Source: an uncultured SAR86 cluster bacterium (GTDB lineage: Bacteria; Pseudomonadota; Gammaproteobacteria; Magnimaribacterales; D2472). From it: a stretch of DNA of 64,000 bases. Position 1 is the first letter of the stretch, and the number at the start of each line of letters is the position of its first letter. A program made the position numbers and the translations under genes. Where the stretch lies: assembly GCA_902513515.1 (NCBI GenBank), contig CABXNE010000002.1, forward strand, positions 5,023-69,022. Direction: 5' to 3'. Below the pieces are notes generated by a model. The model made no database searches. It had not been told where the DNA came from and saw only the letters and a list, made by a program, of their open reading frames with translations. Of the stretch, positions 8,865 to 59,028 are shown one piece after another.

Positions 8865-10004
8865 CTATTTTATATATTGATTTATGTATTCACTGAAGTG
8901 ACTATCAATGAATGATCCTTCTAATCCAAATTCTTCGAGTGAGTATTGATGAGCTCCCATTTCGTGTTGATTTTCTTCCTTCCAGGCCTTCATAGCATTC
9001 TCTGCTCGATCTGTAAAATCCTCACCAATAAAGTTATAAACTTCGTTCATTTCAAGAATAGGATCTTTGATCATTTTATTGAACTCAAGGTTAAGAAAAT
9101 TATCCTTATTCGAATTGCTAACTTCCATACAGTGATTTAATACTTTGGCTAATTTATGAGCCCAATGATGACCAATTTCATTTTTATCATATGAATTTGT
9201 TAAGGGTTCAAATAAATTTGCACACATTGAGCAAAATGATGGAACCGTTTTTAAAGGATCCCTGTGAGTTTGTATAACTCTTGAGTCTGGAAATACCTTT
9301 AAAAGCTTATCAATAAAGCCTAAATGATGAGGAGACTTTAAAACCCATCTTTTCTTTTCTCTTCCTGGGTTCTGCCATTGAAGGTATTGAAGCATTTTTT
9401 TTAGTTGAGCATATGCGTGAATATGATCTTGGGATTCAACCCACTGAGAATAAGAGGGAAGTCTCATAAATGATTCTGGAACTGTACTAAAAAATGTATG
9501 TTCTAAAAGTAATATTTCTTCATCTGCACCCTTATAATCCCAAGGATGAATGGTTAGAGCTTCTGGCGAAGCCTGCATAACCGCCTCAACTTCTGCCTTT
9601 CCCATCTCCATTCGTTCTTCTGGATGGCCACGAACTTCATCTTTTAGCATTGCTGGATATCTTCCTTCCCACCAAAGCATCGCTGTGTGCCTTGGATCTG
9701 ATGCAAGAAGTCTATGGGTCATTGTACTTCCTGTTCTTGGAAGCCCAACAATCACAACAGGAGAATTAATTTCTTCACTGAGTATTTCAGGACTTTGAAT
9801 ACACGCATCTTCAATTTTAAGCAAGTTAGCTAATACACCTGTTAATCTATGTTTTTGCGCTTCCATTCCAATATCATTTAAATCAGCTTCTTTATTTATT
9901 GATTGAACAAGACTTTCAAATCCATCTAAAAATAAAGGATTACCAAAATACTCTAAATTTGTTTGATTTTTTGCATCACTAATTATTTTTGTAGAATCAA
10001 GCAT
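8865..10004 (-). CDS. sulfotransferase-family protein
   Basis: PAPS 5'-phosphosulfate-binding loop-like GLPRTGSTMTHRLL and a 3'-phosphate motif-like THRDPLKTVPS. The start overlaps the upstream stop (TAATG). Confidence 0.6.
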   Translation of the reverse strand: MLDSTKIISDAKNQTNLEYFGNPLFLDGFESLVQSINKEADLNDIGMEAQKHRLTGVLANLLKIEDACIQSPEILSEEINSPVVIVGLPRTGSTMTHRLLASDPRHTAMLWWEGRYPAMLKDEVRGHPEERMEMGKAEVEAVMQASPEALTIHPWDYKGADEEILLLEHTFFSTVPESFMRLPSYSQWVESQDHIHAYAQLKKMLQYLQWQNPGREKKRWVLKSPHHLGFIDKLLKVFPDSRVIQTHRDPLKTVPSFCSMCANLFEPLTNSYDKNEIGHHWAHKLAKVLNHCMEVSNSNKDNFLNLEFNKMIKDPILEMNEVYNFIGEDFTDRAENAMKAWKEENQHEMGAHQYSLEEFGLEGSFIDSHFSEYINQYIK

Positions 10005-11086
10005 TAGCCATTCTCCAAGGTAGTAAGTTTTTTAATTTCAACATTTGGTATTGGATGCGTTGTTGCTCCAATCCACCTCAGGAGCATAGCTCCGTTATTG
10101 CGACCTTCAGTTATAAGGTTATTTTTTAAATTAACAGGTAAATGACTAACATTAATAGTGATGGTTTTATCACTATTGAGACTGGCAGAAGATTCATTAA
10201 TGTGAATAGGGTAATGTCGATAGTCTAGTGACTCCATCCAATAATTTTCTAATTGAAAATTCCAATACTCACAATCAGGTATGTCGGTTGTGATTTCCAT
10301 AAACTCATTTTCATCAAAGTCATAATAACCATGAAGGTAGCAAATTTTTGGATCACCGCCAGCCGCTTGAAAAAAAGTTTGATCACCTAATGGTAATTGA
10401 TTTCTATGATTATCTTTAAATTCATGAACCCACTTCAAGAAAGTTGATGCGGTTCCACTGACAAAAGCAAGAGACTGATTTAACTGACTTTCAAGTTTTA
10501 TTGGTGTTAAAAGTTCCGGACTCGCAATTGAGTTGGTAGTTTTTATATTAATTGTTGCATGAGTTTGAGAGATTCTATTTTTATAGGTTTGCCTAACAAT
10601 TAACATATTTGCATTTTCAGGAAGCGATAAAAAATTTTTAGAATTAGTTTCCCCACCAAGATATAAAATAAAATCTCCTGAACTATCAACCGTCATATCC
10701 CTCATATCAATCTCTCCTAGAGAGACCATCGTTCCATCTTTGCTGTATCTATTTTCTTTCAACCCAAAGCTTAAATAGTCTGACTGACCAATATTGCCAT
10801 ACACCTCATAGGTTTGATTTCCATCTATGTTTGCATTTAAGTAAATATTATCTGGGTTATCTGCACCAATTTTTGCTGTTTCATGAGAGAGATTGTAAAA
10901 AGAGGGCGTAGAAGGATTCGAATGCTCCATATTCATCTCCAAAGATAAGCGCATCAACCGCAATAGGTACCTATATCCTTCAGCTTGGTCTGTTTCGCTC
11001 AGAGTAGATTCAGCTTCAATAATTGATCCAACCTCCTTTAGGTTTTCACAAAAAGCATCCCATTTTTCTTTAAATAAATCAGCCAT
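10004..11086 (-). CDS. conserved hypothetical protein (weak, unverified resemblance to DUF1214-type proteins)
   Basis: Long uninterrupted 360-aa ORF with no clashing ORF, translationally coupled to the sulfotransferase. GADNPDNIYL...YEVYG reminded me of DUF1214 proteins, but I cannot verify this. Confidence 0.45.
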   Translation of the reverse strand: MADLFKEKWDAFCENLKEVGSIIEAESTLSETDQAEGYRYLLRLMRLSLEMNMEHSNPSTPSFYNLSHETAKIGADNPDNIYLNANIDGNQTYEVYGNIGQSDYLSFGLKENRYSKDGTMVSLGEIDMRDMTVDSSGDFILYLGGETNSKNFLSLPENANMLIVRQTYKNRISQTHATINIKTTNSIASPELLTPIKLESQLNQSLAFVSGTASTFLKWVHEFKDNHRNQLPLGDQTFFQAAGGDPKICYLHGYYDFDENEFMEITTDIPDCEYWNFQLENYWMESLDYRHYPIHINESSASLNSDKTITINVSHLPVNLKNNLITEGRNNGAMLLRWIGATTHPIPNVEIKKLTTLENG

Positions 11087-11153
11087 ATTTTTTCTTTTTA
11101 ATTGATTAAATTTATATTAAGGTTGATGTTTAATCAATGAATAGACAAATACA

Positions 11154-12224
11154 ATGCCAAAGCCACAAGAGAGAGATTTAGAGCAAACTAAGGTTGTTTT
11201 TACCACTTGGCTTGAGACGCAATTAGATGAGGCTACTAACCTAAAAGTTGAATTGTTAGGAGGTCCTGAGAATACAGGCTTCTCAAATGAGACATTAAGT
11301 TTTAATGTTTCCTATATTTTAGATGACGTTAATATTAAAACTGGGATGGTTCTTAGATTCTATCCAGAAGGTTTCTTTGTATTTCCTGATTACGATATTC
11401 ACAAACAATTTTTGATTATGCAAAAACTTGCTGGTCATGATATTAAAGTTCCTAAAGTTTTATGGTACGAGCCTAGCGAAGAAATTTTTGGCACGTCATT
11501 TTATGTGATGGAAATGGCCAGCGGAGATGCTCCTTCTGATAATCCTCCATTTCATCAAGAGGGATGGGTTGCTGATTCCCCCGAAGATGTTAGAGAGAGA
11601 ATATGGTGGGGCTGGGTTGAGCAGATGGCTAAAATTCATCAAGTTGACACATCGAACGGAGATTTTGAATTTCTTGACAGACCAAAACTTGCAGAAGACT
11701 ATCTTGATCAAGAATTAAATTATTACTTTAATTTTCATGATTGGGCCATGGATGGCGAAGCTCATCCTGTTGCCGATCAAGCACGTGAATGGCTCAAGGC
11801 GAATAAACCAAAACCAGCTCAATCTTCTATTCTTTGGGGAGATTGTAGGTGTGCAAATATTATGTATGACCCTGATGGAAAAGTTTCAGCTGTTTTAGAT
11901 TGGGAGATGGCGGCACTTGGAGATCCTTGTATGGATCTTGCTTGGGGGATAGCTATTGATGATTGCAATTCAAAAGGCGTTAATGTGGAAAGGTTAAGTG
12001 GATTTCCTGGACCGGTAGCGACTATTGCTAAATGGGAGGCTCTAACTGGATTTAGCGCAGATGATTTTGATTACTATTATATTTTGGCGTTATATAAATT
12101 TACCGTAATCATGGTTAAAGTTGTTAGAAAACTGGAACATTACGAAATCATGCCTATGGGGATGAATGCCCACATCAATAATCATGTAACACCCATGCTT
12201 GAGGCAAAGCTTAAGGAACTATAA
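11154..12224 (+). CDS. phosphotransferase-family (APH/choline-kinase-like) protein
   Basis: Kinase-like catalytic region LWGDCRCANIMYD and DWEMAALGDPCMDLAW (Brenner/APH motifs). This family often accompanies acyl-CoA dehydrogenase clusters. Confidence 0.75.
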   Translation: MPKPQERDLEQTKVVFTTWLETQLDEATNLKVELLGGPENTGFSNETLSFNVSYILDDVNIKTGMVLRFYPEGFFVFPDYDIHKQFLIMQKLAGHDIKVPKVLWYEPSEEIFGTSFYVMEMASGDAPSDNPPFHQEGWVADSPEDVRERIWWGWVEQMAKIHQVDTSNGDFEFLDRPKLAEDYLDQELNYYFNFHDWAMDGEAHPVADQAREWLKANKPKPAQSSILWGDCRCANIMYDPDGKVSAVLDWEMAALGDPCMDLAWGIAIDDCNSKGVNVERLSGFPGPVATIAKWEALTGFSADDFDYYYILALYKFTVIMVKVVRKLEHYEIMPMGMNAHINNHVTPMLEAKLKEL

Positions 12225-12226
12225 AA

Positions 12227-13753
12227 ATGGCTATTTTTTCTATCTCTCATTCTGATACTGGTAAAAAAATATTAAGTTTAAACAGTCCTGTTGATCTTTC
12301 TCACATTGACACTTATGAATGCACATCTCCTGAAGAGATTGCAACCATAATGACCCAAGCTAAAGTTGCTCAAAGTGAATGGAAGAAAACAACCTTAAAA
12401 GAAAGAGTTGAATTAATGCACAGAGTTGCTGATGTTGTAATGCAACAACAAGATAGAATCATGGATGTGGTTATGAGAGAAACTGGCAAACCAGAACAAG
12501 AAGCCATGTCTATGGAGGTCTTTTCAGCGATAGATTCCTTGGTGTTTTACGCTAAGAGAGCTCATAAGTGGCTAGCAGATAAAAAAATTAAGATGCATGG
12601 TCCTATGCAGTTTCTTAAAAAAACAATAATCACATACAAGCCAAGAGGGGTAGTAGCTGTAATCACTCCTTGGAATGGCCCATTTATACTTTCCATCAAC
12701 CCAGTCATTCAAGCCATTCTTTGTGGAAACAGCGTAGTGGTAAAGCCATCTGAGGTTACGCCTATGTCTGGAGCATTGGTCCAGGAGATTTTTGCATTAG
12801 CAGAAGCTCCCCAACATTTAATTCAGACTGTGATTGGAGATGGAGAGACGGGCGCTGAATTAATTGATCAGGGCCCAGATAAAGTGTCCTTTACAGGCAG
12901 TGTTGCTACCGGAAAGAAGATTGCTGCAAAGTGTGGTGAAATGCTCATTCCTTATAGCCTCGAATTGGGGGGCAAAGATGCCATGATTGTTTGCTCTGAT
13001 GCAGACATTAAAGATGCTGCAAGTGGAGCAGTTGTTGGTTCATGTATGAATGCTGGCCAGTATTGCTGTGGCACTGAGAGAATTTATGTCATGGATGATG
13101 TTTATGATGAGTTCGTTGATGAAGTTGTCAGCATCACTCAGTCACTCATTCAATCAAATGATTGTAAAGGTGATGTGGGCGCTACATTTTGGGATAAGCA
13201 AATAAACATAATCGAGGATCATGTTAATGATGCTGTTGCTAAAGGAGCCAAGGTATTGGTTGGAGGCAAGAGAAATCCAAATTTTAAAGGTTTATATTTC
13301 GAACCAACAGTTCTTGTTGAAGTTACACATGAAATGAAAATCATGAAAGATGAAACTTTTGGACCAATTATTTCCATTATGAAAGTTCAATCAGAGGATG
13401 AGGCATTAATTTTAGCTAACCAATCTCATTATGGTTTAAATGGAAATGTTTGGACCAAGGATTTAAAAAAAGGTCAAAGATTAGCGAAATCAATTGATAC
13501 AGGAGCCTGTTCTGTTAATGACATGGCAATGAGCTACGGAGTAAATGAAGTCCCATTTGGTGGTGTAAAAGAAAGCGGCTTGGGCGTGGTTAATGGAAAG
13601 GAGGGCTTATTAGCATATGCCCATCCAATGCCAATCATTATTGGTAAGAAATCTGCCTCTGCTTACCCCTATACAGATAAATCATTTGAGCAACTTAAAG
13701 GTGCTTTAAAAATATTTTGGGGTAATAGGCTAGTAAGAAAATTATTTGGTTAA
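12227..13753 (+). CDS. NAD(P)+-dependent aldehyde dehydrogenase
   Basis: FTGSVATGKKI, catalytic-Glu motif LELGGKDA, catalytic Cys context GQYCCGTERIYV, and EETFGP-like DETFGP. Confidence 0.9.
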   Translation: MAIFSISHSDTGKKILSLNSPVDLSHIDTYECTSPEEIATIMTQAKVAQSEWKKTTLKERVELMHRVADVVMQQQDRIMDVVMRETGKPEQEAMSMEVFSAIDSLVFYAKRAHKWLADKKIKMHGPMQFLKKTIITYKPRGVVAVITPWNGPFILSINPVIQAILCGNSVVVKPSEVTPMSGALVQEIFALAEAPQHLIQTVIGDGETGAELIDQGPDKVSFTGSVATGKKIAAKCGEMLIPYSLELGGKDAMIVCSDADIKDAASGAVVGSCMNAGQYCCGTERIYVMDDVYDEFVDEVVSITQSLIQSNDCKGDVGATFWDKQINIIEDHVNDAVAKGAKVLVGGKRNPNFKGLYFEPTVLVEVTHEMKIMKDETFGPIISIMKVQSEDEALILANQSHYGLNGNVWTKDLKKGQRLAKSIDTGACSVNDMAMSYGVNEVPFGGVKESGLGVVNGKEGLLAYAHPMPIIIGKKSASAYPYTDKSFEQLKGALKIFWGNRLVRKLFG

Positions 13754-14520: not shown

Positions 14521-14663
14521 TTTTAGTACTTTTTCAAATTTAGTCTATTTAATTATAGAGTATGTATGATTGATTTATATTGACAAATTTATTCTTACAG
14601 TTACCCATTGATTGGTTGCTGAATTTGTATAATATTTATTACATATTATTCGGGAGGTATTGA

Positions 14664-15296
14664 ATGAAGATAGCTATTCTGGGCGGGACAGGGTCTTTGG
14701 GTAAAGGATTGGGTTCAAGATGGATTAAAGCGGGTCATGAAGTTTTTATTGGGAGTCGTGACTTATTAAAAGCTAAAGATATTGCTGTGCAATTAGGTCT
14801 TGATAGCTCATCTGGAATGCTAAACATTGATGCGGCTAAATCTTGTGAACTTGCATGTTTAACAGTGCCATTTGCTCATCAAGAATCAACTCTTTTAAGC
14901 ATTGAGAACGCTTTGCATAACAAAATTATGGTTGATGCAACTGTTCCCCTTATGCCTCCAAAAGTAATGAGGGTTCAATTACCTGAAGCGGGCTCAGCAG
15001 CATTAAATGCCCAATCAATTCTGGGTGAACATACTACTGTAATATCAGCCTTTCAAAATATTTCTGCTGAATTGCTTCAAACTGATGCAAACATTGATTG
15101 TGATGTATTGGTTGCTGGAGATCTTGTTGATGCAAGAAATACGGTTATTGGCTTAGCATCTGATGCTGGTCTTACTGGATGGCATGCTGGACCACTCTGT
15201 AATTCTGTTGCAGCAGAAGCATTAACCTCAATACTTATTGCAATTAATAAAAAACACTCACTTGCCCATTCAGGTATTAAGATCACAGGCCACTAA
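14664..15296 (+). CDS. fno: NADPH-dependent F420 reductase (F420H2:NADP+ oxidoreductase, Fno/NpdG family)
   Basis: 210 aa. The N-terminal MKIAILGGTGSLGKGLGSRWIKAGHEVFIGSRD is the characteristic Fno/NpdG dinucleotide fold. A strong SD (gggagg) precedes the ATG. It is the first gene of the cof cluster. Confidence 0.8.
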   Translation: MKIAILGGTGSLGKGLGSRWIKAGHEVFIGSRDLLKAKDIAVQLGLDSSSGMLNIDAAKSCELACLTVPFAHQESTLLSIENALHNKIMVDATVPLMPPKVMRVQLPEAGSAALNAQSILGEHTTVISAFQNISAELLQTDANIDCDVLVAGDLVDARNTVIGLASDAGLTGWHAGPLCNSVAAEALTSILIAINKKHSLAHSGIKITGH

Positions 15297-15311
15297 AAAA
15301 AGAGAAATATC

Positions 15312-16073
15312 ATTAGTTCTATAGACCTCATAGCATTAGAGACATTACCCCTTATCCAACCTGGACAAGATTTGTCTAAAGAAATTATTAATGGGATAGA
15401 ATCTGAATCAATTAAAATTGATGATGGAGATGTAATAGCAGTTGCACAAAAAATTATTTCTAAGTCAGAAAATAGATATCTAGATATTTCACAGCTTAGC
15501 CCTTCAGAGGAGGCATTAACTTTATCAAGAATAATTGATAAAGATCCAAAGTTTATTCAAGCAATCCTAAATGAATCAAAGAAGGTAGTTCGCTACAGAA
15601 TGGGAGTATTAATAGTTGAGCACAAGTTAGGATTTATTCATGCGAACGCTGGAATTGACAGGTCTAATACAGATCAAGAAAAAGACATCGTATTATTATT
15701 GCCAGAAAATCCAGACAATTCAGCAAAGATGATTTCAGAATCTTTATCTCAACATTTTCAAAAAAATATATCTGTAATTATTACCGATACCATGGGAAGG
15801 CCTTTTAGAAATGGAATAGTGGGTTTTACTATAGGCAGCCATAATATTGAATGCCTATTGGATGAACGTGGAAAAAATGATCTATTTGGTAATAAACTTA
15901 AAGTTACCCAAATTGGTATTGCTGATGAGTTAGCAGCTGCCGCATCATTGTTAATGGGTCAAGCTGCTCAAAAAAAACCTGTTGTGTTGATCAAAGGTTA
16001 TAAATTTAATCAAAATAATCTTAGTGACTCTCAATCATTAATTCGTAGCGAAGAAGAGGATCTATTCAGATGA
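15312..16073 (+). CDS. cofE: F420-0:gamma-glutamyl ligase CofE (single-domain form); start codon uncertain
   Basis: HANAGIDRSN and ITDTMGRPFRNG are CofE/F420-ligase signatures. The conserved N-terminal strand-loop (IDLIALETLPLIQPGQDL) lies upstream of the track's TTG (15372). That region has no ATG/GTG/TTG, so the ATT at 15312 (or ATC at 15309) is used provisionally. Confidence 0.85.
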   Translation: MSSIDLIALETLPLIQPGQDLSKEIINGIESESIKIDDGDVIAVAQKIISKSENRYLDISQLSPSEEALTLSRIIDKDPKFIQAILNESKKVVRYRMGVLIVEHKLGFIHANAGIDRSNTDQEKDIVLLLPENPDNSAKMISESLSQHFQKNISVIITDTMGRPFRNGIVGFTIGSHNIECLLDERGKNDLFGNKLKVTQIGIADELAAAASLLMGQAAQKKPVVLIKGYKFNQNNLSDSQSLIRSEEEDLFR

Positions 16074-16999
16074 AAAATTATCTTTTACTATGTGGAGGAG
16101 TTGGAGGAGCTAAACTTGCGTTAGGATTTAAAAATTCAATCGATGCAGATAACTTAACCATTGCTGTCAATACTGGAGATGATTTTACTCATCTTGACCT
16201 TAAAATTTGTCCCGATCTTGATACTGTGATGTATACCCTTGCTGGTGAATCAGATCTATCTAAGGGTTGGGGTAGAAAAGATGAATCATGGAATATGCTT
16301 TCAGCATTAGGCGCCATGAAGGGGGAAACTTGGTTTCAACTTGGAGACAAAGATTTAGCAACTCATATCCAAAGAACAAATTTAATTAAATCTGGCCAAT
16401 CTTTAACTCAAGCAACTCATAATTTATGTGAGTCATTTAATCTTCCAAAGTATATTTTTCCAATGAGCAATCAACCTGTTGAGACCTATATTCAAACAAA
16501 AAATAGGTTGATTTCATTTCAAGAGTATTTTGTAAAATTGAAATGCGAGCCACCAGTAACTGATTTTGTTTTTAAGGGGCTTGATAAAGCTGAATTTAAT
16601 CAAGATATAGATTTATCAAATTTTGATGAAATTATTGTCTGCCCATCTAATCCTTATGTAAGTATAAACCCAATGCTTCAGTTATCGTCTCTGAAAAATT
16701 ATTTACAGGATTTTCCAGAAAAAGTTAGTGTTATAAGTCCTATCGTTAATGCACAATCATTGAAAGGTCCGACTGCAAAAATGATGAATGAGCTTGGTTA
16801 TGAAGTAAGTGTTATTACAATTGCTAAGTTTTATAAAACTTATTCTAAAAGAATTTTTATAGATTCATTAGATTTGAATGAGTCTAGTAAGTTAAATGAA
16901 TTAGGATATGAAGTGCATAATAATAATTTAATCATGAATAGCACTAACTCAAAAAATGCACTCGCCAAGGCAATAATTCACCAGCTTGAATCAAAATAA
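16070..16999 (+). CDS. cofD: 2-phospho-L-lactate (LPPG):FO transferase CofD
   Basis: N-terminal LCGGVGGAKLALG plus NTGDDF...LDLKICPDLDTVMYTLAG match the CofD family. ATGA overlap with cofE. Confidence 0.9.
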   Translation: MKNYLLLCGGVGGAKLALGFKNSIDADNLTIAVNTGDDFTHLDLKICPDLDTVMYTLAGESDLSKGWGRKDESWNMLSALGAMKGETWFQLGDKDLATHIQRTNLIKSGQSLTQATHNLCESFNLPKYIFPMSNQPVETYIQTKNRLISFQEYFVKLKCEPPVTDFVFKGLDKAEFNQDIDLSNFDEIIVCPSNPYVSINPMLQLSSLKNYLQDFPEKVSVISPIVNAQSLKGPTAKMMNELGYEVSVITIAKFYKTYSKRIFIDSLDLNESSKLNELGYEVHNNNLIMNSTNSKNALAKAIIHQLESK

Positions 17000-17575
17000 A
17001 TGAATGTATCTGCATTTATACCGATTAAAAAATTTTCAACTTCAAAGAAGCGACTATCAAATATTGTTAGTTCATCTGAGCGAGAGAATCTAGCTGTCTT
17101 AATGGCAACGAAAACAATAGATACTTTATTTAATTCTAAGATATGCAACTCAATAACAGTTGTTACAAATGATAAAAATTTACATTTAAATAATTCAAAG
17201 TCATATTTTACAAAATCATTATTGAATGAAGGTTTAAATGAGGCTATAAATTCTCATGCTAAAAATGACATTATTTTAATCATGCATGCCGATCTTCCGA
17301 GAATTAATGAATTAGATCTTCAGGAGCTAACAAAAATTTTTGATGTCAAAAAAGTTAGCATTATTTCAGATCTTTTAAAGCAAGGAACAAATTGCTTAAT
17401 GTTTAATTCGTCGGTCAATTTCAAGCTTAAATTTGGTATAGATAGCTACAATCTTTTTATAAATGAATTCAAAAATAATGAAATAAATTATCAAGATGTT
17501 TGCATAGAAAGCCTTCAGGATGACCTTGACTCCGAGGAAGATTACTTCAAACTAATTAAATATATTGAGAGTTAG
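17000..17575 (+). CDS. cofC: phospho-lactate/phosphoenolpyruvate guanylyltransferase CofC/FbiD
   Basis: N-terminal AFIPIKKFSTSKKRLS (family pattern iPvK...aKsRL), about 190 aa, positioned between cofD and fbiC. Confidence 0.7.
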   Translation: MNVSAFIPIKKFSTSKKRLSNIVSSSERENLAVLMATKTIDTLFNSKICNSITVVTNDKNLHLNNSKSYFTKSLLNEGLNEAINSHAKNDIILIMHADLPRINELDLQELTKIFDVKKVSIISDLLKQGTNCLMFNSSVNFKLKFGIDSYNLFINEFKNNEINYQDVCIESLQDDLDSEEDYFKLIKYIES

Positions 17576-19994
17576 CTCGTTGAAGATTCAAGAACAATCA
17601 AATTATACTTTGCAGCAGTTAATTGCTACTGGATCTATAGATTTTTCTGCATTAACCTCTTTGGCTAATATTTGTTTATCTGATGCTCTAATTAAAGCAT
17701 CCCATGAGAAGAAAAAAGCGCATTTTAAAAATTTATTAACCTACTCGCCAAAGGTTTTCATCCCTTTAACATTTTTATGTCGCGATGTTTGTCATTACTG
17801 TACTTTTGCTCAAACCCCTAAAAAAGTTGAATCTCCATACTTATCAATTGATCAAGTTGTTTCAATTGCAAAAGAGGGTGAGGTTAATGGTTGTTATGAA
17901 GCTTTATTTACACTTGGTGATAAACCCGAATTAAGATACAAAGCTGCTAGAGATTGGCTTTCAATGAATGGCTTCAAAACAACAAATGATTACCTGGCTG
18001 CTTGCGCAGAAGCTGTATTGAATGAGACCTCTTTAATCCCTCATTTAAATCCAGGTTGCTTAACTTCTGATGAAATCAAAAAACTCAAGCCTTTAAGCGG
18101 CTCAATGGGTCTAATGGTTGAATCTCTCTCATCACGGCTTACTGAAAAAGGCCAGCCGCACTATGGATCTCCTGATAAGGATCCTATATTTAGAATGCAG
18201 ACCTTAGAAGAGGCTGGAAGACAAAAAGTTCCATTTACCACTGGAATATTAATTGGAATAGGTGAAACGAGGTTAGAACGTTTAGAGTCATTACACAAAA
18301 TAGCTGAATTACATAATACCTATAATCATATCCAAGAAGTTATAGTTCAAAACTTTAGAGCAAAGCCTAATACATTGATGGCAAATGCAATCGAGCCATC
18401 ATTTGATGAGCTTATGTGGACAATAGCTATGGCTAGATTAATTCTGCCTGGCGACATTAGCTTACAAGTTCCACCCAATCTAAACGCAGAGAATATTAAA
18501 CAATTAACTTTGTCTGGGATAAATGATTTTGGAGGAATATCTCCAGTTACCAAGGATTATGTTAATCCAGAAGCACCTTGGCCTGAAATAGAAAGATTAA
18601 ATAAAATAGCCTCATTCTCAAATCAATCATTAAAACCAAGGGCAACATTGTATCCTAGATATTTTTCCGACCTGAAGACCTTCTCAACACATGAAATATC
18701 CTCCAAGCTTCTTCAAATAACAGATTCTCAGTCACTTATAAGGTCTGACCATTGGAGATCAGGAATTAGTAAAAATATACCTTCATACCCAGAATCTATT
18801 TTTAATTCTAATATACGCCAGTCGATCCATGATGTTGAGAACAATCCATCTATTGAGAATATCCAAGAGCTATTAGAGGTGTCTGATAATGATTTTAAAT
18901 ATATTACTGAATATGCCAATGATGTTAAATCACAAATACATGGATCTGATATTAGTTTTGTTGTGAATAGAAATATCAACTATACAAACATATGCTCTTT
19001 TAAATGTAATTTTTGTGCATTCTCAAAAGGTAGGGGGCATGATGATTTAAGAGGCAAGCCATATAACATTTCTCATGAAGAGATCATTCGAAGAACAAAT
19101 GAAGCTATTGATAGAGGTGCGACAGAAGTCTGTTTGCAGGGCGGTATTCATCCAAAATATTCTGGTGAAACTTATCTCGAAATTGTAAGGGCAATTAGAT
19201 CTGCTTCTCGATCAGTGCATATTCATGCTTTTTCCCCTCTAGAAATTGATCACGGTAGAAAAACTTTAAATATTTCTGCTAAAGAATTTCTTATAGAGCT
19301 TAAAAACGCAGGTCTTAATTCACTTCCCGGAACAGCCGCTGAGATTCTGCATGATGATATTAGATCAATTATTTGCCCTGATAAACTCACAAGCAAAAAG
19401 TGGATTGAGATTATCAAAACTGCTCATTCTGTAGGGTTGCCTACTACATCTACCATGATGTTTGGTCATATCGAGAGCACTCATCATATCGCCCACCATT
19501 TAATGAAGCTTTTAACCCTCCAGATGAGCACGAACGGGTTAACTGAATTCGTTCCCCTACCTTTTGTTGCTGATGAAGCGCCTATTTTTAGAAGAGGTCA
19601 AGCAAGGCCTGGGCCTACTTTCAAGGAGACAATTTTAGTGCACTCCGTTGCGAGGATTCTTTTTAATGGAAGCATAAATAACATTCAAGGCTCGTGGGTT
19701 AAAATGGGATTACCAGGTCTAAAATATCTTTTATCTTCTGGAATTAATGACATTGGGGGTGTTTTGATGAATGAATCTATAACAAGGTCAGCTGGGGCTT
19801 CATTTGGCCAGGAGCTTAATTTGGATGATGTTGTATGTATTGCAGAAGAGCTAGACTTAAATTTAAAACAAAGAAATACTCTTTATGACCCCTTAAAAAA
19901 TGATCTTCAAAACTTAATTAATTTACAATCAATTTCATTGATCCCAATAATTAATGAATATAATCAACCTAAACAAATAATAAATACCTTATGA
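17565..19994 (+). CDS. fbiC: FO synthase, fused CofG+CofH (FbiC)
   Basis: 809 aa with two radical-SAM CxxxCxxC motifs (CRDVCHYCTF near residue 72; CSFKCNFCAF near residue 477), the architecture of fused FbiC. Confidence 0.95.
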   Translation: MRVSSLKIQEQSNYTLQQLIATGSIDFSALTSLANICLSDALIKASHEKKKAHFKNLLTYSPKVFIPLTFLCRDVCHYCTFAQTPKKVESPYLSIDQVVSIAKEGEVNGCYEALFTLGDKPELRYKAARDWLSMNGFKTTNDYLAACAEAVLNETSLIPHLNPGCLTSDEIKKLKPLSGSMGLMVESLSSRLTEKGQPHYGSPDKDPIFRMQTLEEAGRQKVPFTTGILIGIGETRLERLESLHKIAELHNTYNHIQEVIVQNFRAKPNTLMANAIEPSFDELMWTIAMARLILPGDISLQVPPNLNAENIKQLTLSGINDFGGISPVTKDYVNPEAPWPEIERLNKIASFSNQSLKPRATLYPRYFSDLKTFSTHEISSKLLQITDSQSLIRSDHWRSGISKNIPSYPESIFNSNIRQSIHDVENNPSIENIQELLEVSDNDFKYITEYANDVKSQIHGSDISFVVNRNINYTNICSFKCNFCAFSKGRGHDDLRGKPYNISHEEIIRRTNEAIDRGATEVCLQGGIHPKYSGETYLEIVRAIRSASRSVHIHAFSPLEIDHGRKTLNISAKEFLIELKNAGLNSLPGTAAEILHDDIRSIICPDKLTSKKWIEIIKTAHSVGLPTTSTMMFGHIESTHHIAHHLMKLLTLQMSTNGLTEFVPLPFVADEAPIFRRGQARPGPTFKETILVHSVARILFNGSINNIQGSWVKMGLPGLKYLLSSGINDIGGVLMNESITRSAGASFGQELNLDDVVCIAEELDLNLKQRNTLYDPLKNDLQNLINLQSISLIPIINEYNQPKQIINTL

Positions 19995-20872
19995 GCAAAA
20001 AACTTAAACACCTTTCAGTTATTTTTATTGGTTACATAGCATGTATTTATTCCATGCAACTTACTTGGAATTCCTTTCCAGAGTCATCCTTGGTACTTAA
20101 AGTTTTAATATGTCATATTGAGGCCACAATTTTTATTTACCTGTTAAGTGTTATTTTCAATAATTCAAGTTGGTATGATGCCTTTTGGTCAGTCATACCA
20201 GTTGTTTTAACTATAATGTGTTGGGCAGATATCTCTGCTGGTGGAGATGTTCAAAGAGCATTTTTGATGCATGCATGTTTATTATTTTGGGCTATTAGAT
20301 TAACTTATAACTGGATGAGATCTTGGGATGGTTTTTCCCATGAAGATTGGCGATACATCATGATGAAGGGAAAAACATATAATAAATTTCAATACTTCAC
20401 AGTAGATTTTGGTTCCATACACCTTATTCCAACTCTTTGTGTTTATATGGCACTGCTGCCAATGATTTACGCTCTTGCTTACCCCGGTGATGAATTAAAT
20501 AATTTAGATATGCTGGCTACTTTTTTGGCTATTTCGGCAGTGATAATTCAGATTATCTCAGATCAGCAAATGTATAATTTTAGAAAAAATCTTACTGAAC
20601 CTAAAACTATGAAATCTGGTTTATGGTATTACTCACGTCATCCAAACTACTTTGGAGAAATATTATTCTGGTTCAGCCTATTTGTTTTTGCTTTAGCATC
20701 AAATCTATCATTTGCTTGGTTATTGATTGGCTCTGTCATCATGTATGCTTTAATAGCTTTTGCATCAGTTTCAATGATGGATAAACGATCATTGGAAAGA
20801 CGTTCAGATTTTAAGGAATACATGGATTCAACCCCAGCAATTTTCATTAATATTTTTAAAAAGGTTAGATAA
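19991..20872 (+). CDS. DUF1295 / steroid 5-alpha-reductase-like polytopic membrane protein
   Basis: Multi-TM 293-aa protein with the family C-terminal signature YYSRHPNYFGEILFW. Its ATG overlaps the fbiC stop (ATGA). Confidence 0.8.
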   Translation: MSKKLKHLSVIFIGYIACIYSMQLTWNSFPESSLVLKVLICHIEATIFIYLLSVIFNNSSWYDAFWSVIPVVLTIMCWADISAGGDVQRAFLMHACLLFWAIRLTYNWMRSWDGFSHEDWRYIMMKGKTYNKFQYFTVDFGSIHLIPTLCVYMALLPMIYALAYPGDELNNLDMLATFLAISAVIIQIISDQQMYNFRKNLTEPKTMKSGLWYYSRHPNYFGEILFWFSLFVFALASNLSFAWLLIGSVIMYALIAFASVSMMDKRSLERRSDFKEYMDSTPAIFINIFKKVR

Positions 20873-22173
20873 TGAGAAAGTTATATATATTAATCGCTTT
20901 TATGATAGTAATAGCTCCTATTTCAGCAGATGATTTAAAAAACCAGTTAGACAGAGATCTTCAGGCAGTGATGACAAAAGTTACTGATTGGAGGCATCAT
21001 TTTCATGAATATCCTGAGCTCTCAAACAGGGAATACAAAACACAAGAATCTATAGTTGAAGCATTAACTGAGATGGGTCTTGAGCCTAATACAGAATTTG
21101 GTATCACAGGAGTAACGGCATTTATTAGAGGTCAAAATCCAGGCCCTCTAATTGCTCTTAGGGCTGACATTGATGGATTGCCAGTTACTGAGAAACTTAA
21201 TCTACCTTTTTCTTCAAAAGTCAAAACTACATATCAGGGTAATGAAGTTGGTGTTATGCATGCATGCGGTCATGATGCTCATATAGCAGTGTTGCTTGGG
21301 GTCGCTAGCTTCCTTTCAAGAAATACTGAAAAGTTAAATGGCGATATTTTATTAATATTTCAACCTGCTGAAGAAGGCGCTCCTGAAGGAGAAGACGGTG
21401 GCGCTGAATTAATGCTTAAACAGGGTCTTTTTGAGGCTGAAAAACCAGATGCTATTTTTGGAATGCACGTATCAAATTTTAAAAATGGTCAAATATGGAC
21501 TAAACCTGGACCTATTATGGCTTCGGCAGAAGCTTTTAGAATAATTGTTCAAGGTCAGCAAACTCATGGTTCAAGACCTTGGAGTGGAGTTGATCCTATT
21601 ATTGCAGCATCAGATATCGCTACAACTTTACAAACAATTGTAAGCAGAAGATTAAATCTTTTAGATAGTCAGGCAGTAGTCACTGTTGGAATTATGAAAG
21701 CTGGAACAAGAAATAACATCATACCTGCCTCAGCAATGTTAGAGGGTACTATAAGAACTTTTAAAAACTCTTATGCAGATCAAATACGAGATGAAATTAA
21801 ACTTATTGCTGAAAATGTAGCCGCTGCTCATCATGCTACTGCTGTGGCTGAATTTAAAGTTTATGGAGGCTATCCAGTAACTTTTAATGATGAAAATCTT
21901 GCTAAAAAATACTCCTCTTCATTAATAGAAGCCACCAATGGAGATTATTTTGAAGCAAAAGTTCCAAGGACCGGTGCTGAGGATTTTTCTTTTTATGCTC
22001 AACAAGTTCCAGGTTTATTCTTTTTTCTTGGAGTAAATGCTCCAGGTAACGATGACAGTCCGACCAATCATTCACCTTATTTTTATGTTGATGATTCGGC
22101 GCTAGGTAATGGCGTTAAAGCATTTATCAATCTTGTCGAGGATTTCTCCGAGGATTATAATAAAAGCAATTAA
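20872..22173 (+). CDS. secreted M20-family amidohydrolase (M20D aminoacylase/hippurate-hydrolase-like)
   Basis: N-terminal signal-like MRKLYILIAFMIVIAPISA. Metal-binding MHACGHDAH; QPAEEG; C-terminal HSPYF. The start overlaps the DUF1295 stop (TAATG). Confidence 0.85.
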   Translation: MRKLYILIAFMIVIAPISADDLKNQLDRDLQAVMTKVTDWRHHFHEYPELSNREYKTQESIVEALTEMGLEPNTEFGITGVTAFIRGQNPGPLIALRADIDGLPVTEKLNLPFSSKVKTTYQGNEVGVMHACGHDAHIAVLLGVASFLSRNTEKLNGDILLIFQPAEEGAPEGEDGGAELMLKQGLFEAEKPDAIFGMHVSNFKNGQIWTKPGPIMASAEAFRIIVQGQQTHGSRPWSGVDPIIAASDIATTLQTIVSRRLNLLDSQAVVTVGIMKAGTRNNIIPASAMLEGTIRTFKNSYADQIRDEIKLIAENVAAAHHATAVAEFKVYGGYPVTFNDENLAKKYSSSLIEATNGDYFEAKVPRTGAEDFSFYAQQVPGLFFFLGVNAPGNDDSPTNHSPYFYVDDSALGNGVKAFINLVEDFSEDYNKSN

Positions 22174-22208: not shown

Positions 22209-22559
22209 ATGAAAATTTATCTGCTGTCATTTTTACTTCTTAATATTTCAGTTGATTTATTCAGTCAAGAAATTTATAAAAAAAAATGCATCTCACAATC
22301 TGGTAAATCTATTTACGAAATTGCTCTTCTAGCAAAAAAAGAGGGCATGGGAGAGATTAGGCTTGAATTTAATGGCGAAGTTAATCTTTACTCTGCAAAA
22401 GTGCTTATTATAAATACTAATAATATTGTAGGTGTTGCAAAATTTAAATCCTCATTAACTGGACAAATCGAAGGCTCGCCTTGGGTATTCACATATTACT
22501 TTGATACCGACAAATTTATTGATGATGGTCGTCTTGAAGCTAACTGCTCTGAAATTTAG
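22209..22559 (+). CDS. hypothetical secreted protein
   Basis: 116 aa with a signal-like N-terminus (MKIYLLSFLLLNISVDLFS) and Cys near each end. No family recognised. Confidence 0.45.
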   Translation: MKIYLLSFLLLNISVDLFSQEIYKKKCISQSGKSIYEIALLAKKEGMGEIRLEFNGEVNLYSAKVLIINTNNIVGVAKFKSSLTGQIEGSPWVFTYYFDTDKFIDDGRLEANCSEI

Positions 22560-24055: not shown

Positions 24056-25765
24056 ATGAAATGGGATTATGAATTTGATGTAGTCGTAATTGGTTCTGGA
24101 AACGGAGCCTTAACATCTGCTTTATGTAGTCACGATGGTGGTGCAAAAACTTTGGTTATTGAAAAAAGCACTCAATTTGGTGGAACCTCTGCTACCTCTG
24201 GTGGAGGTGTATGGATTCCTAATAACAGGTATGCAAAAGCTGAAAATGTTGATGACTCTAATCAAGATGCGAGAGACTATATAAATAGCGTTTCACCTGA
24301 AGGAAAAATTAAAGATGAGCTAGTGGAAACTTATCTTTCTGAAGGCCCTAAAATGATTGATTATCTTCATGAAAATTCACAAGTTAAGTATAGAAATTTA
24401 GCTCATTATCCAGACTACTTTCCAGATAATCCTGGTGGAAAAGCAGGGAATAGGTCCATGGAACCTGAGCCAATCAAAGGAACTGAACTTGGAGACGATC
24501 TTCAGAAACTCAGGGAACAGCATCCGCAAACCGCATTTACTATGGGACCAATCAATATGAATTTTACTCAAGTAGAAGGCCAGTTATTGTTAGGCGCACT
24601 TCCAGGGTGGAAATCTCTCTTTGCAAAACTATTCACTAAATATATTTTAGATATATCCATGAGGGTTAAATGGGGTTGGAAAGATAGAAGGTTGACTATG
24701 GGCAATGCAGGTGTGGCTCGATTAATTTTATCCCTCAAAGATAGAAATGTAGTTTTATGGACTGAAACTACTATGACTGATCTCATCGATGAAAATGGCT
24801 CAGTAATTGGTATTAAAGCTACTAAAAATAATATTGAGATAAACATTAAAGCAAATAAAGGTGTCATTCTTGCTTCTGGTGGATTTGAAAAAGATCAAAG
24901 TTTGAGAGAAAAATATTTACCTCAGCCTACTAATATAGAGTGGAGTGCTGCCAATATTTATAATACAGGCGATGCATTAAAAGCTGCTTTAAAATTAGGA
25001 GCTGATACTCATCAAATGGATACAGGTTGGTGGTCTACTGTTATGAAAGTACCAGGACAAGATAAAGGTTGGCTATCAATGGTAGATAAATCAATGCCTG
25101 GAAATTTTACCGTCAATAAAAATGGTGAAAGATTTTCAAATGAATCCCAAAATTATGTCAGCTTTGTAAATGATATGTTTGATAAGTATGCGGAGGGAAA
25201 TCCCTGTGCTCCATGTTATATGATTTTTGATAGCACATTTAGAAAAAATCGACCATGCGGACCTCTTCTTCAAGCATCTATGCAGCCTGATTCATCTGTT
25301 CCTAAGGATTGGTGGACACCATCTTTTTTATCAAAGGGTGAGACATTAGAGGAACTAGCTGAAGTTGCTGGCATTGATGTTGAAGGTCTTTTAGCAACAC
25401 AGGCAAAAGTTAATGAATATGCTGCATCAGGCAAAGACCTTGATCTTCAACGTGGTGATAGTGTTTATGATAGGTATTACGGCGATCCATCAGTTACACC
25501 AAATCCATGTCTTGCTCCTATAGAAACTGGACCCTTTTATTGTATGGTTCTATATCCTGGTGAAATGGGTACTGCGGGCGGTCTAGTAATAGATTCAAAT
25601 GCAAGAGTCATAAACAAAGAAGGTAAAGCGATACCAGGACTTTATGCGTGTGGAAATTGCTCAACAGCGTTGTTACCTACATATCCTGGCCCTGGCTCAA
25701 CTCTTGGTCCAGCCATGACTTTTGGTTACTTGGCTGCAAAACACATTACTGGTTCAAATTTTTAA
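24056..25765 (+). CDS. FAD-dependent 3-oxosteroid 1-dehydrogenase (KstD)-like flavoprotein (FAD_binding_2 family)
   Basis: N-terminal FDVVVIGSGNGALTSA...GGTSATSGG dinucleotide fold and C-terminal GLYACGNCS...YPGPGSTLGPAMTFGY, as in KstD/fumarate-reductase-type flavoproteins. Confidence 0.75.
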   Translation: MKWDYEFDVVVIGSGNGALTSALCSHDGGAKTLVIEKSTQFGGTSATSGGGVWIPNNRYAKAENVDDSNQDARDYINSVSPEGKIKDELVETYLSEGPKMIDYLHENSQVKYRNLAHYPDYFPDNPGGKAGNRSMEPEPIKGTELGDDLQKLREQHPQTAFTMGPINMNFTQVEGQLLLGALPGWKSLFAKLFTKYILDISMRVKWGWKDRRLTMGNAGVARLILSLKDRNVVLWTETTMTDLIDENGSVIGIKATKNNIEINIKANKGVILASGGFEKDQSLREKYLPQPTNIEWSAANIYNTGDALKAALKLGADTHQMDTGWWSTVMKVPGQDKGWLSMVDKSMPGNFTVNKNGERFSNESQNYVSFVNDMFDKYAEGNPCAPCYMIFDSTFRKNRPCGPLLQASMQPDSSVPKDWWTPSFLSKGETLEELAEVAGIDVEGLLATQAKVNEYAASGKDLDLQRGDSVYDRYYGDPSVTPNPCLAPIETGPFYCMVLYPGEMGTAGGLVIDSNARVINKEGKAIPGLYACGNCSTALLPTYPGPGSTLGPAMTFGYLAAKHITGSNF

Positions 25766-25767
25766 CT

Positions 25768-26520
25768 ATGGATTTCTCTAATAAAACAGCATTAATTACA
25801 GGCTCCGGACAAGGTGTTGGAGAGGGTATTGCTCGAGCGATTGCTTCATATGGAGGAAACGTGAGCTTGGTTGGTAGAACTCTTTCAAAAGTTGAATCGG
25901 TTGCTGATCAAATAAATCATGACGGTGGGTCAGCCATAGCTATTGAATGCGATGTTAAATGTAATGAATCAATTAACAAATCTATTAAAGCCACACTATC
26001 AAAGTTTAATTCTTTAAATATTTTGGTAAACAATGCTCAAGAAGTTCCATTAGGAAATATTTTAGATGTAACAGACGAATCATTTATAAATGGATGGGAT
26101 TCTGGGCCTCTGGCAACATTTCGCTTCATGAAGGCTTGTCACCCTTATCTAAAAGGAGGTGGAAAAGTGATTAATCTAGCAAGCTCCTCTGCTTTAAGAC
26201 CTGATTCAAAATCTTACGGTGCTTATGCAGCTGTAAAAGAGTCAATTCGCTCTTTATCGAGGGCAGCTGCAGTCGAGTGGGGGCCGGACAATATTTTAGT
26301 AAATTGTATAATGCCTCTCGCCAAGTCAACCGGAATGGACTGGTGGATGAATGAGCATCCAGATGAAGCTAACGAATTTCTTAAAACCATCCCATTAGGC
26401 AGGGTGGGTGAATGCAAAGATGATATTGGGGAGGCCGTTTGTCATATTCTATCTGATGGCATGAATTACATTACCGGATCAACTATCATGCTTGATGGGG
26501 GTCAAGCATATCTAAGATAA
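25768..26520 (+). CDS. short-chain dehydrogenase/reductase (SDR)
   Basis: MDFSNKTALITGSGQGVGEG Rossmann start, NNAQ, and YAAVKES (YxxxK). The track's upstream extension from 25648 overlaps the KstD-like gene and looks spurious. Confidence 0.9.
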   Translation: MDFSNKTALITGSGQGVGEGIARAIASYGGNVSLVGRTLSKVESVADQINHDGGSAIAIECDVKCNESINKSIKATLSKFNSLNILVNNAQEVPLGNILDVTDESFINGWDSGPLATFRFMKACHPYLKGGGKVINLASSSALRPDSKSYGAYAAVKESIRSLSRAAAVEWGPDNILVNCIMPLAKSTGMDWWMNEHPDEANEFLKTIPLGRVGECKDDIGEAVCHILSDGMNYITGSTIMLDGGQAYLR

Positions 26521-26525
26521 CTAGC

Positions 26526-27011
26526 ATGGATAAACTGCAAAAATTAATTGATATAGAAGAGATTAAAAATCTCAAGCATAGATATTTTAGGGCGATAGAT
26601 ATGGCTGATTTTGATTTACTCGATAATGTATTTTCACAAGATATAACAATTGATTATCGAGGTGGTACCTATAGATGGGAATCTGAGGGCAAAGAGACTA
26701 TCAAAGAAAGCTTAATTCATGCATTTCATAATCAGACTGCTGCCATGCATACTGCCCATCATCCAGAAATTGAAATTCTTTCAGAGACTGAGGCTACTGG
26801 GAAATGGTATCTTCAAGATATTTTCTACAATTTTGATTTAGCTACCGTTACTCAAGGCACGGCATTATATGAAGATAGGTACATTAAAACTAATGATCAA
26901 TGGTTAATTAAGCATTCTGAATACGATCGTATATGGGAACAAGTATCGCCCATTAATCCCGATGACAAATTTACTAAAATTCTTTTAAAAGACAAGGGAA
27001 TTAAAAAATAG
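26526..27011 (+). CDS. NTF2-fold SnoaL_4-like protein
   Basis: 161 aa. LIDIEEIKNLKHRYFRAIDMADFDLLDNVFSQD is typical of the SnoaL_4/BaiE-like NTF2 subfamily. Confidence 0.65.
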   Translation: MDKLQKLIDIEEIKNLKHRYFRAIDMADFDLLDNVFSQDITIDYRGGTYRWESEGKETIKESLIHAFHNQTAAMHTAHHPEIEILSETEATGKWYLQDIFYNFDLATVTQGTALYEDRYIKTNDQWLIKHSEYDRIWEQVSPINPDDKFTKILLKDKGIKK

Positions 27012-27019
27012 GAATAACT

Positions 27020-27448
27020 ATGAAAGAAATGGTTCAATCAGCGCTAGATAATTATGTCTTAGCATACAAAAATAATGATAAAGCTTTATTCAGAAGCCTT
27101 TGGGATGATAAGGCTGTATTTGAAGATCCTGTAGGTGCAGAGCCTTGTAATGGAATTGAAGCGATATGTGCTTTTTGGGATTTTGGACATAGTGATGGAA
27201 TGGAGATAAACCCTACAAATGTTGAAACAGTGATTTGTTCTAATGAAGGTATCCTAAAAGCTGTTATGGAGGTTAGAAATATTAATGATAATTCTGGAAT
27301 GGATATTTCAATTGTAGATCACTTTATTATTAACGAAAGTGGAAAAATTACGAGTGGTCGAGCTTTTTGGAATGAATCGTCTATTTCACAGCCTGATGAT
27401 GTTAGCTTAATTGATATCAATGTTGATGATTTTAAAGATAGGGGTTAA
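27020..27448 (+). CDS. NTF2-fold ketosteroid-isomerase-like protein
   Basis: 142 aa. YVLAYKNNDKALFRSLWDDKAVFEDPVG follows the ketosteroid-isomerase-related/SnoaL N-terminal pattern. Confidence 0.6.
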   Translation: MKEMVQSALDNYVLAYKNNDKALFRSLWDDKAVFEDPVGAEPCNGIEAICAFWDFGHSDGMEINPTNVETVICSNEGILKAVMEVRNINDNSGMDISIVDHFIINESGKITSGRAFWNESSISQPDDVSLIDINVDDFKDRG

Positions 27449-52966: not shown

Positions 52967-53398
52967 TTATTTCTTTCCCCACATTGGTAAAACTTGCATA
53001 ATCGTAATTGCAATTATGAATAAACCCTGAGGAAGTGAAGGTATTAAATTAAATGGTGCGCCAGGATTATTACTAGCAATTAATTCAGAACCGTAAGGTG
53101 AGATTAGTTCGCCAGATGCCTCTAATACTGCCATTCCATTAGCAACACCATTTGCATTCCATTCTGAAGCCCCAAAATTAATTAACCATCCATAGGCTAT
53201 AAAAAGAGAGAAAGTAGTACCAGCTATTTTCATTAGCAAAGGAGTATCAACATTGTTATAAATATTCTGACCAATTCTTAGGCCCACCCAGGATAGAAAT
53301 CCTAATGCTAAAAACCATGAAGCTTGACCACCTGAAGCCATCCATAGATGATCCCAAAGCTCTAATTCCGTGTAATTAACTGTCGCTGAAGATTCCAT
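52967..53398 (-). CDS. hypothetical 3-TM membrane protein, paralogue B of a tandem pair
   Basis: 143 aa with three hydrophobic segments. It shares ELELW, PLLMKI, GWLI, SGELISP, NPG and the C-terminal LPMWGKK with the upstream gene's ELEMW, PVLMKV, GWMV, SGTELSP, NPG and LPLWLKGEK. ATGA-type overlap at 53398. Confidence 0.6.
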   Translation of the reverse strand: MESSATVNYTELELWDHLWMASGGQASWFLALGFLSWVGLRIGQNIYNNVDTPLLMKIAGTTFSLFIAYGWLINFGASEWNANGVANGMAVLEASGELISPYGSELIASNNPGAPFNLIPSLPQGLFIIAITIMQVLPMWGKK

Positions 53399-54695: not shown

Positions 54696-54700
54696 AGCTT

Positions 54701-59022: not shown

Positions 59023-59028
59023 TTATCT

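Follow-up and report, generated by a model that had tools for sequence, protein, structure and literature searches.

Clusters for coenzyme F420 that combine a fused FbiC, a stand-alone CofE and Fno are known from Alpha- and Betaproteobacteria (PMC8498797). As far as this 2021 review describes them, the clusters of Paracoccus denitrificans and Oligotropha carboxidovorans (Ney et al., 2017, via PMC8498797) each bring together, in an aerobic heterotroph and at one place in the genome, a fused FbiC, a stand-alone CofE lacking a nitroreductase domain, CofC, CofD and Fno. Its main text names Alpha- and Betaproteobacteria only, not Gammaproteobacteria, and the richness of marine metagenomes in F420 genes is noted only in bulk (PMC8498797). 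Here we describe a seven-gene unit, fno-cofE-cofD-cofC-fbiC-DUF1295-M20, at positions 14664-22173 (+ strand) of a 64-kb stretch of an uncultured SAR86 cluster bacterium (contig CABXNE010000002.1 of assembly GCA_902513515.1, positions 5,023 to 69,022; this whole stretch of 64,000 nucleotides is hereafter “the window”). Most probably, the unit is an operon that the SAR86 clade inherits vertically, and that serves to synthesize coenzyme F420 and maintain it in the reduced form.

Set beside the described systems, the machinery is standard and the type of cluster is known; what is new is the SAR86 host, the probable AUU/AUC start of cofE and the DUF1295-M20 tail. The gene content is that of the P. 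denitrificans and O. carboxidovorans clusters as reviewed, whereas the host is a gammaproteobacterium with a streamlined genome (~1.2 Mb, by the contig of a SAR86 relative) and not an alpha- or betaproteobacterium from soil, genes for LLHT, FDOR or Fgd are absent nearby, DUF1295 and M20 follow at the 3' end, and the start of cofE is non-canonical. With the mycobacterial FbiA/FbiB/FbiC/FbiD pathway the operon shares the fused FbiC and a CofC/FbiD with Gly at the G163 position, compatible with phosphoenolpyruvate (PEP) or 2-phospholactate; in contrast to mycobacteria, it has no C-terminal FMN-dependent nitroreductase domain of FbiB, a stand-alone FbiE was not found in the window, and the genes, dispersed in mycobacteria, form one operon. 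The 3PG-F420 cluster of Mycetohabitans (Paraburkholderia) rhizoxinica (Braga et al., 2019; Hasan et al., 2022, PMC8764529) likewise has a stand-alone CofE and Fno as the sole known F420 reductase, and neither this cluster nor the SAR86 operon has recognizable F420-dependent enzymes nearby, but its CofC carries the diagnostic Ser162 where the SAR86 protein has Gly (FGIDS).

Translation places seven + strand open reading frames (ORFs) at the coordinates given in the earlier note on this DNA, and the motifs quoted there are all present: GGTGSLG in Fno, HANAGIDRSN in CofE, LCGGVGGAKLALG in CofD, IPIKKFSTSKKRL in CofC, and two CxxxCxxC radical-SAM motifs (CRDVCHYC and CSFKCNFC) in FbiC. Curated hidden Markov models likewise identify the first five as F420 genes, with CofC 0.9 bit short of the TIGR03552 cut-off. 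The operon opens with fno (npdG; 14664..15296, 210 aa), which encodes an NADPH-dependent F420 reductase (TIGR01915, 176.3 bits for a cut-off of 149.8; PF03807). The region that separates it from a divergent short-chain dehydrogenase/reductase (SDR) gene on the - strand (14521..14663) presumably holds the operon promoter, and includes a strong Shine-Dalgarno (SD) sequence GGGAGG (14651-14656) 7 nt before the fno ATG. Then follow cofE (15312..16073, ~253 aa from a proposed ATT at 15312) for a stand-alone F420-0:gamma-glutamyl ligase (TIGR01916, 249.5 bits when read from TTG 15372, cut-off 180.65); cofD (16070..16999, 309 aa) for a 2-phospho-L-lactate (or EPPG) transferase (TIGR01819, 268.4 bits, cut-off 257.45); and cofC (17000..17575, 191 aa) for a guanylyltransferase (TIGR03552; PF01983, 59.1 bits, cut-off 22), whose slot between cofD and fbiC is conserved. 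The fused CofG-CofH FO synthase is encoded by fbiC (17580..19994, 804 aa from TTG 17580), with 480.4 bits for the CofG domain (TIGR03550, cut-off 213.35), 493.7-493.8 bits for the CofH domain (TIGR03551, cut-off 374.1), and 978.1 against the full-length fused model NF006687, below its cut-off of 1018. The last two genes encode a DUF1295 integral membrane protein (19991..20872, 293 aa; PF06966, 147.6 bits, with a weak match to the steroid-dehydrogenase family PF02544) and an M20D-family amidohydrolase/aminoacylase (20872..22173, 433 aa; TIGR01891, 326.9 bits; PF01546, 135.8 bits; PF07687).

The genes are tightly packed: cofE/cofD and fbiC/DUF1295 overlap in ATGA, cofD and cofC abut (TAA-ATG), and DUF1295 and M20 overlap by 1 nt (TAATG). 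Four of the five junctions quoted in the earlier note are exact, but the fifth, an 11-nt overlap of cofC and fbiC, depends on TTG 17565 (809 aa), the less probable start. Judging from the junctions of relatives, fbiC more probably starts at TTG 17580, as in the public gene call, with a 4-nt gap after cofC and a GAGAG motif upstream; this +4 TTG arrangement is the commonest (12 of 23 distinct relatives' junctions). With two in-frame TTG candidates 15 nt apart (17565-17582), the fbiC start is thus also non-ATG, and at least two genes of the operon have weak start codons. The sixth junction, fno/cofE, was missing from the earlier list and shows a 75-nt gap by the canonical TTG 15372, which would shrink to ~15 nt with the non-canonical start. 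Across the clade, spacings of -4 to +5 nt predominate at each boundary: the -4 overlap of cofE and cofD is kept in 17 of 19 distinct relatives and that of fbiC and DUF1295 (ATGA) in 23 of 33 distinct junctions, and DUF1295 and M20 lie -4 to +5 nt apart throughout. One strand, tight junctions and an arrangement kept in relatives all agree with the translationally coupled operon proposed earlier, which remains a prediction from sequence. The promoter itself is placed only by inference, as a promoter scan returned no more sites than in shuffled sequence; a terminator scan gave four terminator-like matches, fewer than in shuffled sequence, of which the two on the + strand are both intragenic.

The window contig is SAR86, i.e., marine Gammaproteobacteria. 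CofD and a second window protein have identical copies on CABXOF010000008.1 of the single-cell genome assembly GCA_902513705.1, and in a peptide-pattern-based scan of one genome per species the best two FbiC matches among those listed are “uncultured SAR86 cluster bacterium” assemblies (86% and 69% identity), both of which have the whole neighbourhood of the window with synteny kept. Other window genes were found on Tara Oceans and further marine metagenome contigs, and a 1.19-Mb contig holds one SAR86 relative. The streamlined gammaproteobacterial backbone that had been deduced from the neighbouring core genes is thereby borne out.

Within SAR86, the seven-gene unit is present in two named species genomes (52-92% protein identity) and on metagenome contigs in which the F420 proteins are 37-58% identical to those of the window (CofC 36-38%) and DUF1295 53-58%; Fno is 61-99% identical across SAR86-clade loci. 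A scan of marine metagenomes was anchored on the highly conserved neighbouring NMO gene, and is biased towards relatives of the query. Among its loci with at least 9 kb beyond the anchor, 24 of 27 carry all seven genes and three carry none, and of the 57 with at least 2.5 kb, 50 carry both DUF1295 and M20 and seven carry neither. Such purifying conservation, which extends to the entire unit and to SAR86 lineages that have diverged deeply, supports the “real use” of F420 argued for in the earlier note.

The sole canonical start in the frame of cofE, TTG 15372, gives a 233-aa protein without the N-terminal strand of the family, which matches TIGR01916 from profile position 23 onwards. Upstream, the frame stays open as far as the stop of fno, the codons between reading KKRNIISSIDLIALETLPLIQPGQD, and CofE read from 15297 or 15312 scores 263.8-263.9 bits over profile positions 2-244. 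We compared 27 distinct SAR86-clade fno/cofE junctions (CofE 56-100% identical), across which the segment upstream of the TTG shows protein-level conservation with many synonymous changes, and in most of which ATG, GTG and TTG are absent upstream of the conserved CofE N-terminus. At the 24 main-clade junctions, the codon aligned with 15312-15314 of the window is always ATT or ATC, and lies 6-7 nt after an AAGAGA, GAGAGA or GGAG motif (in the window AAGAGA, 15300..15305, 6 nt upstream of the proposed ATT) and 12-15 nt beyond the stop of fno; in the three junctions that diverge most, a GGAG motif is followed 6-7 nt later by an equivalent ATT. In-frame stops at aligned codons 2-3 in two lineages (L123 and L117) bracket the start. 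Based on this comparison, cofE most likely starts with AUU or AUC throughout the SAR86 clade, whereas cofE in the closest operons outside SAR86 has an ordinary ATG with GGAG. With a non-canonical start, the public cofE calls (233 aa and 240 aa) would be N-terminally truncated; a canonical start ahead of the conserved N-terminus is missing at window 15297-15374 and at the corresponding junction of loci L006, L007, L086 and L098-L166. A readthrough fusion of Fno and CofE was also considered and rejected, the fno stop being in frame with cofE in the window and some lineages but in the +1 frame in many.

The same junction could be taken as a sign of decay, with cofE truncated at its 5' end and the pathway halting at F420-0 or non-functional, since standard ORF finding and the public calls both yield the 233-aa CofE without its first beta-strand and with a profile match that begins only at position 23. 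However, the 20 “missing” codons are present in frame, are conserved as protein in 27 distinct lineages and add 14 bits, and decay would keep neither these codons nor an invariant ATY at a fixed distance from an SD-like motif, which makes a decaying operon extremely unlikely. A retained near-cognate start has precedents in infC and pcnB of Escherichia coli, where an AUU codon at proper SD spacing is likewise conserved over evolution, and implies deliberately low, IF3-sensitive translation. Unlike in infC and pcnB, the SAR86 codon follows the stop of the preceding gene by 12-15 nt, and termination-reinitiation may contribute. Such a start would hold CofE output well below that of Fno, and one might speculate that a scarce ligase affects tail length or flux.

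Given the established roles of these families (PMC8498797), FbiC would build the deazaflavin FO from tyrosine and a riboflavin precursor, CofC would activate a three-carbon phospho-acid (2-phospholactate or PEP, not 3-phosphoglycerate, 3-PG) with GTP, CofD would join the activated phospho-acid to FO, the stand-alone CofE would add the gamma-glutamyl tail, and Fno would use NADPH to load F420 with hydride on behalf of F420H2-dependent reductases whose genes would lie elsewhere in the genome. As to the linker, CofC aligns to the M. mazei CofC 2I5E (E = 6e-7) and the M. tuberculosis FbiD 6BWG, with its FGIDS motif facing FGPDS of the latter and a Gly at the G163 position. As Ser at this position (S162 in M. 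rhizoxinica) is diagnostic of 3-PG use in Mycetohabitans (PMC8764529), the Gly predicts ordinary F420 (or dehydro-F420, DF420) rather than 3PG-F420, and CofC is predicted to be of the 2-phospholactate/PEP type, two substrates that in vitro assays do not discriminate (PMC8764529). The PEP route, as in mycobacteria, also requires a dehydro-F420 reductase, either FbiB's C-terminal domain or FbiE (PMC8498797). The FbiB model NF009810 matches the SAR86 CofE at positions 11-243 of 449 only, so that the C-terminal nitroreductase domain is absent, and no PF00881-type nitroreductase or stand-alone FbiE was found among the ORFs of the window. That the five functions suffice to make and reduce F420, as the earlier note had it, is thus plausible but not assured, because PEP use would need a reductase that the window lacks.

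A more modest output would be FO alone, made as the antenna of a DNA photolyase, with the F420-specific genes vestigial. SAR86 does inhabit the photic zone, FO-type photolyases need FbiC only (PMC8498797), and the best non-bacterial FbiC matches include an algal-type FO synthase from Chromera; yet cofC, cofD, cofE and fno are each intact, with purifying selection acting on them throughout the clade, no photolyase was found in the window, and one relative has done the opposite of what FO-only production predicts, losing fbiC while keeping cofC and cofD. In this relative (locus L141, 6334-9473), cofD-cofC is followed by DUF1295-M20 with ~70 nt between cofC and DUF1295; fbiC may have been relocated, or FO may be salvaged. 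An operon serving FO alone is therefore scarcely credible, and synthesis of F420 itself remains our preferred reading.

When 1.84 billion cluster representatives were searched exhaustively with HMMER, the nearest FbiC relatives outside SAR86 came out at 49-53% identity. Two operons found in this way, both from uncultured marine bacteria, have the same gene order and orientation as in SAR86: L170 (GC 63%) carries fno-cofE-cofD-cofC-fbiC and then a convergent luciferase-like gene, a candidate F420-dependent enzyme, and L171 (GC 57%) has fno-cofE-cofD followed by a gene for a 1011-aa protein in which CofC and FbiC are fused (CofC::FbiC, 9565-12600). Their proteins are 47-51% (FbiC), 49-51% (Fno) and 41-43% (CofE) identical to those of the window, and L171 is from Halieaceae (OM60/NOR5), its TrpD being 75-78% identical to that of Luminiphilus. 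Both differ from the SAR86 operon in the ATG start of cofE, in a much higher GC content, and in the absence of DUF1295 and M20; the shared order without these two genes points to five genes as the conserved functional cassette. FO synthases of ~980-1016 aa among the top matches (P0121, P0125) may also be CofC::FbiC fusions, and the FO synthase of Chromera velia (P0126), another of the closest matches, is 53% identical to the SAR86 FbiC over the matched stretches, which hints at an FbiC subfamily common to marine bacteria and plastid-bearing eukaryotes.

These relatives bear on whether the genes reached SAR86 recently from Actinobacteria, Chloroflexi or Archaea on a mobile island. Among the matches listed in the pattern-based scan, FbiC proteins of Dehalococcoidia and Nitrosopumilaceae (41-45%) come directly after SAR86, and some SAR86 lineages lack the whole region, with core genes beside NMO instead. 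As nearest outgroups, however, Thaumarchaeota and Dehalococcoidia were rejected, since HMMER found ~50% identical relatives of the same gene order, and their rank reflects a limitation of the peptide-pattern method. The closer cassettes (47-51%), one of them from Halieaceae, also speak against the nesting with actinobacterial or chloroflexal clades raised in the earlier note. The GC content of the operon (31-36%) equals that of its surroundings (34% for the window), which argues against recent import, and the operon and its flanks are kept even in SAR86 subclades whose CofE is down to 56% identical. No integrase, transposase, tRNA or repeat boundary was seen flanking the operon. A recent import thus seems very unlikely, and by sequence comparison the SAR86 genes appear to be a diverged member of a five-gene cassette of marine bacteria, at least one of them gammaproteobacterial. 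In the loci without the unit, synteny stops exactly at NMO and continues with ClpA/ClpS, Icd, MnmA, PurB and AceA; three such loci (L135, L136 after 11128, and L140) have these core genes beside NMO, at the place that the F420 operon occupies in the window along with over 20 kb of genes for catabolism and sensing. The NMO boundary, at ~22.7 kb of the window, looks like the edge of a large variable region or a rearrangement breakpoint.

The DUF1295 and M20 genes are, from the loci compared, presumably co-transcribed neighbours peculiar to SAR86 and outside the F420 cassette seen elsewhere. The AlphaFold model of the DUF1295 protein (pLDDT 95.3) finds its best Protein Data Bank folds with Foldseek in 7BW1, 4QUV, 5V7P and 7C83 (probability 0.94-1.0, TM-scores 0.35-0.54), i.e., human SRD5A2, a bacterial delta14-sterol reductase, ICMT and a bacterial steroid 5-alpha-reductase. 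With these the protein shares the multi-helix fold and the C-terminal RHPNY-G-E cofactor-site motif, but its identity to them is only 11-18%; across 49 homologues, RHPNYFGE and a further 26 residues do not vary. The model thus suggests a fold of the steroid-5-alpha-reductase/sterol-reductase/ICMT type, which reductases share with a methyltransferase, ICMT. For the M20 protein, the closest solved relatives are YxeP, an ILR1-like hydrolase and an N-acyl-glutamine aminoacylase, and an N-terminal signal peptide read from the translation (MRKLYILIAFMIVIAPISA, followed by DD) makes it probably periplasmic.

DUF1295, and possibly M20, might be working parts of the F420 system. DUF1295 could reduce the enolpyruvyl C=C of dehydro-F420-0 in place of the FbiB C-terminal domain or FbiE, or it could act as a membrane-bound reductase of a new kind, supplied with F420H2 by Fno, and the exported M20 could trim or salvage glutamylated deazaflavins or the substrate of DUF1295. 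Linkage is indeed close: DUF1295 adjoins fbiC in all SAR86-clade loci examined, down to 53% identity, mostly through the ATGA overlap at the fbiC stop (23 of 33 junctions) and with M20 within -4 to +5 nt; it follows cofC directly in L141 despite the loss of fbiC there, and loci have the two tail genes along with F420 genes, or else they have neither kind. A DF420 reductase of the nitroreductase type is lacking from the operon, whose CofC is predicted to be of the 2-phospholactate/PEP type, and the DUF1295 fold and RHPNYFGE motif match NADPH-dependent C=C reductases. On the other hand, both tail genes are missing from the closest non-SAR86 cassettes (L170 and L171), 0 of 78 non-SAR86 FbiC/CofH loci have a DUF1295 or M20 homologue within 10 kb, and the DUF1295 that comes closest from beyond the clade (L089, 44% identity) lies in no F420 context. 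The flanking APH, aldehyde dehydrogenase, NMO and KstD-like genes are equally syntenic, so that the linkage may be inherited gene order alone, and the joint absence of the genes does not discriminate because loci without the unit lack the entire left flank too; for the same reason, these loci proved uninformative on whether DUF1295 and M20 persist alone. Moreover, DF420-0 is a soluble cytoplasmic metabolite whereas the known substrates of the family are lipids, and M20 is exported. Full-text searches, which are thin on subscription journals and thus give a weak negative, found no papers tying F420 to SAR86, Halieaceae/OM60 or DUF1295. We therefore hold a functional link of the tail genes to F420 to be unlikely, and quite unlikely the specific proposal that DUF1295 is a new F420-linked enzyme, whether as the enoyl reductase for dehydro-F420-0 that is missing from bacteria without FbiE and the C-terminal part of FbiB, or as the first membrane enzyme of the steroid-reductase fold to use F420H2.

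Returning to the operon as a source of reduced F420, several observations weigh against it. CofC misses the TIGR03552 cut-off (104.1 bits for 105) and is the fastest-evolving and a poorly conserved gene of the set (37-78% identity within the clade). If PEP is the substrate, the pathway as encoded in the window would be incomplete. The AUU/AUC start of cofE is a prediction from comparative sequence. Some SAR86 lineages are without the whole unit at this locus, which is consequently not essential to the clade. No consumer of F420H2 was identified within the 64 kb: in agreement with the earlier note, Pfam matches (precomputed on identical public contigs or from hmmscan) for all ORFs of at least 110 aa include no luciferase-like, FDOR/PPOX-like or Fgd protein, nor any nitroreductase-like protein or photolyase. 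For four window ORFs (360, 143, 137 and 116 aa), relaxing E to 5 still brings no Pfam match, nor a weak FDOR-like signal. Finally, SAR86 is uncultured, and it is for such an organism that we infer F420 production, the linker substrate, a low translation of CofE and any role of the tail genes.

The surroundings of the operon are dense in steroid/isoprenoid-like catabolic families (6116-7081, 24056-27448 and 53913-63982), including a KshA-like Rieske oxygenase with rubredoxin, a KstD-like FAD enzyme, SnoaL-like proteins and several SDRs, as well as acyl-CoA dehydrogenases, an acyl-CoA ligase, ChsH2-like OB-fold proteins, MaoC hydratases, a thiolase-like protein and a P450. Genes of steroid/isoprenoid-type catabolism thus surround an operon that itself encodes a steroid-reductase-fold protein. 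Among the ORFs without a Pfam match (listed at 10004-11086 and 52967-53811 on the - strand and 22209-22559 on the + strand), the 360-aa ORF adjoins a sulfotransferase gene, an arrangement kept in SAR86 relatives (L086), and the 116-aa ORF begins with what resembles a signal peptide and turned up in four related loci only (49-84% identity). Rfam and tRNA scans of the window gave zero matches.

SAR86 bacteria are among the most abundant heterotrophs of the surface ocean, uncultured and with very small genomes. A conserved investment of 5-7.5 kb in F420 implies a low-potential hydride chemistry that is missing from current SAR86 metabolic models, and for which the reduction of enones, quinones or xenobiotics would be likely uses. 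Part of the bulk abundance of F420 genes in marine samples can now be assigned to Gammaproteobacteria, namely SAR86 and Halieaceae, and the compact, AT-rich operon could be expressed for testing the linker substrate of a bacterium with a stand-alone CofE. Should the improbable F420-linked role of DUF1295 hold true, it would identify an F420 consumer in an abundant ocean heterotroph, one perhaps linked to the sterol/lipid-like catabolism encoded around the operon.

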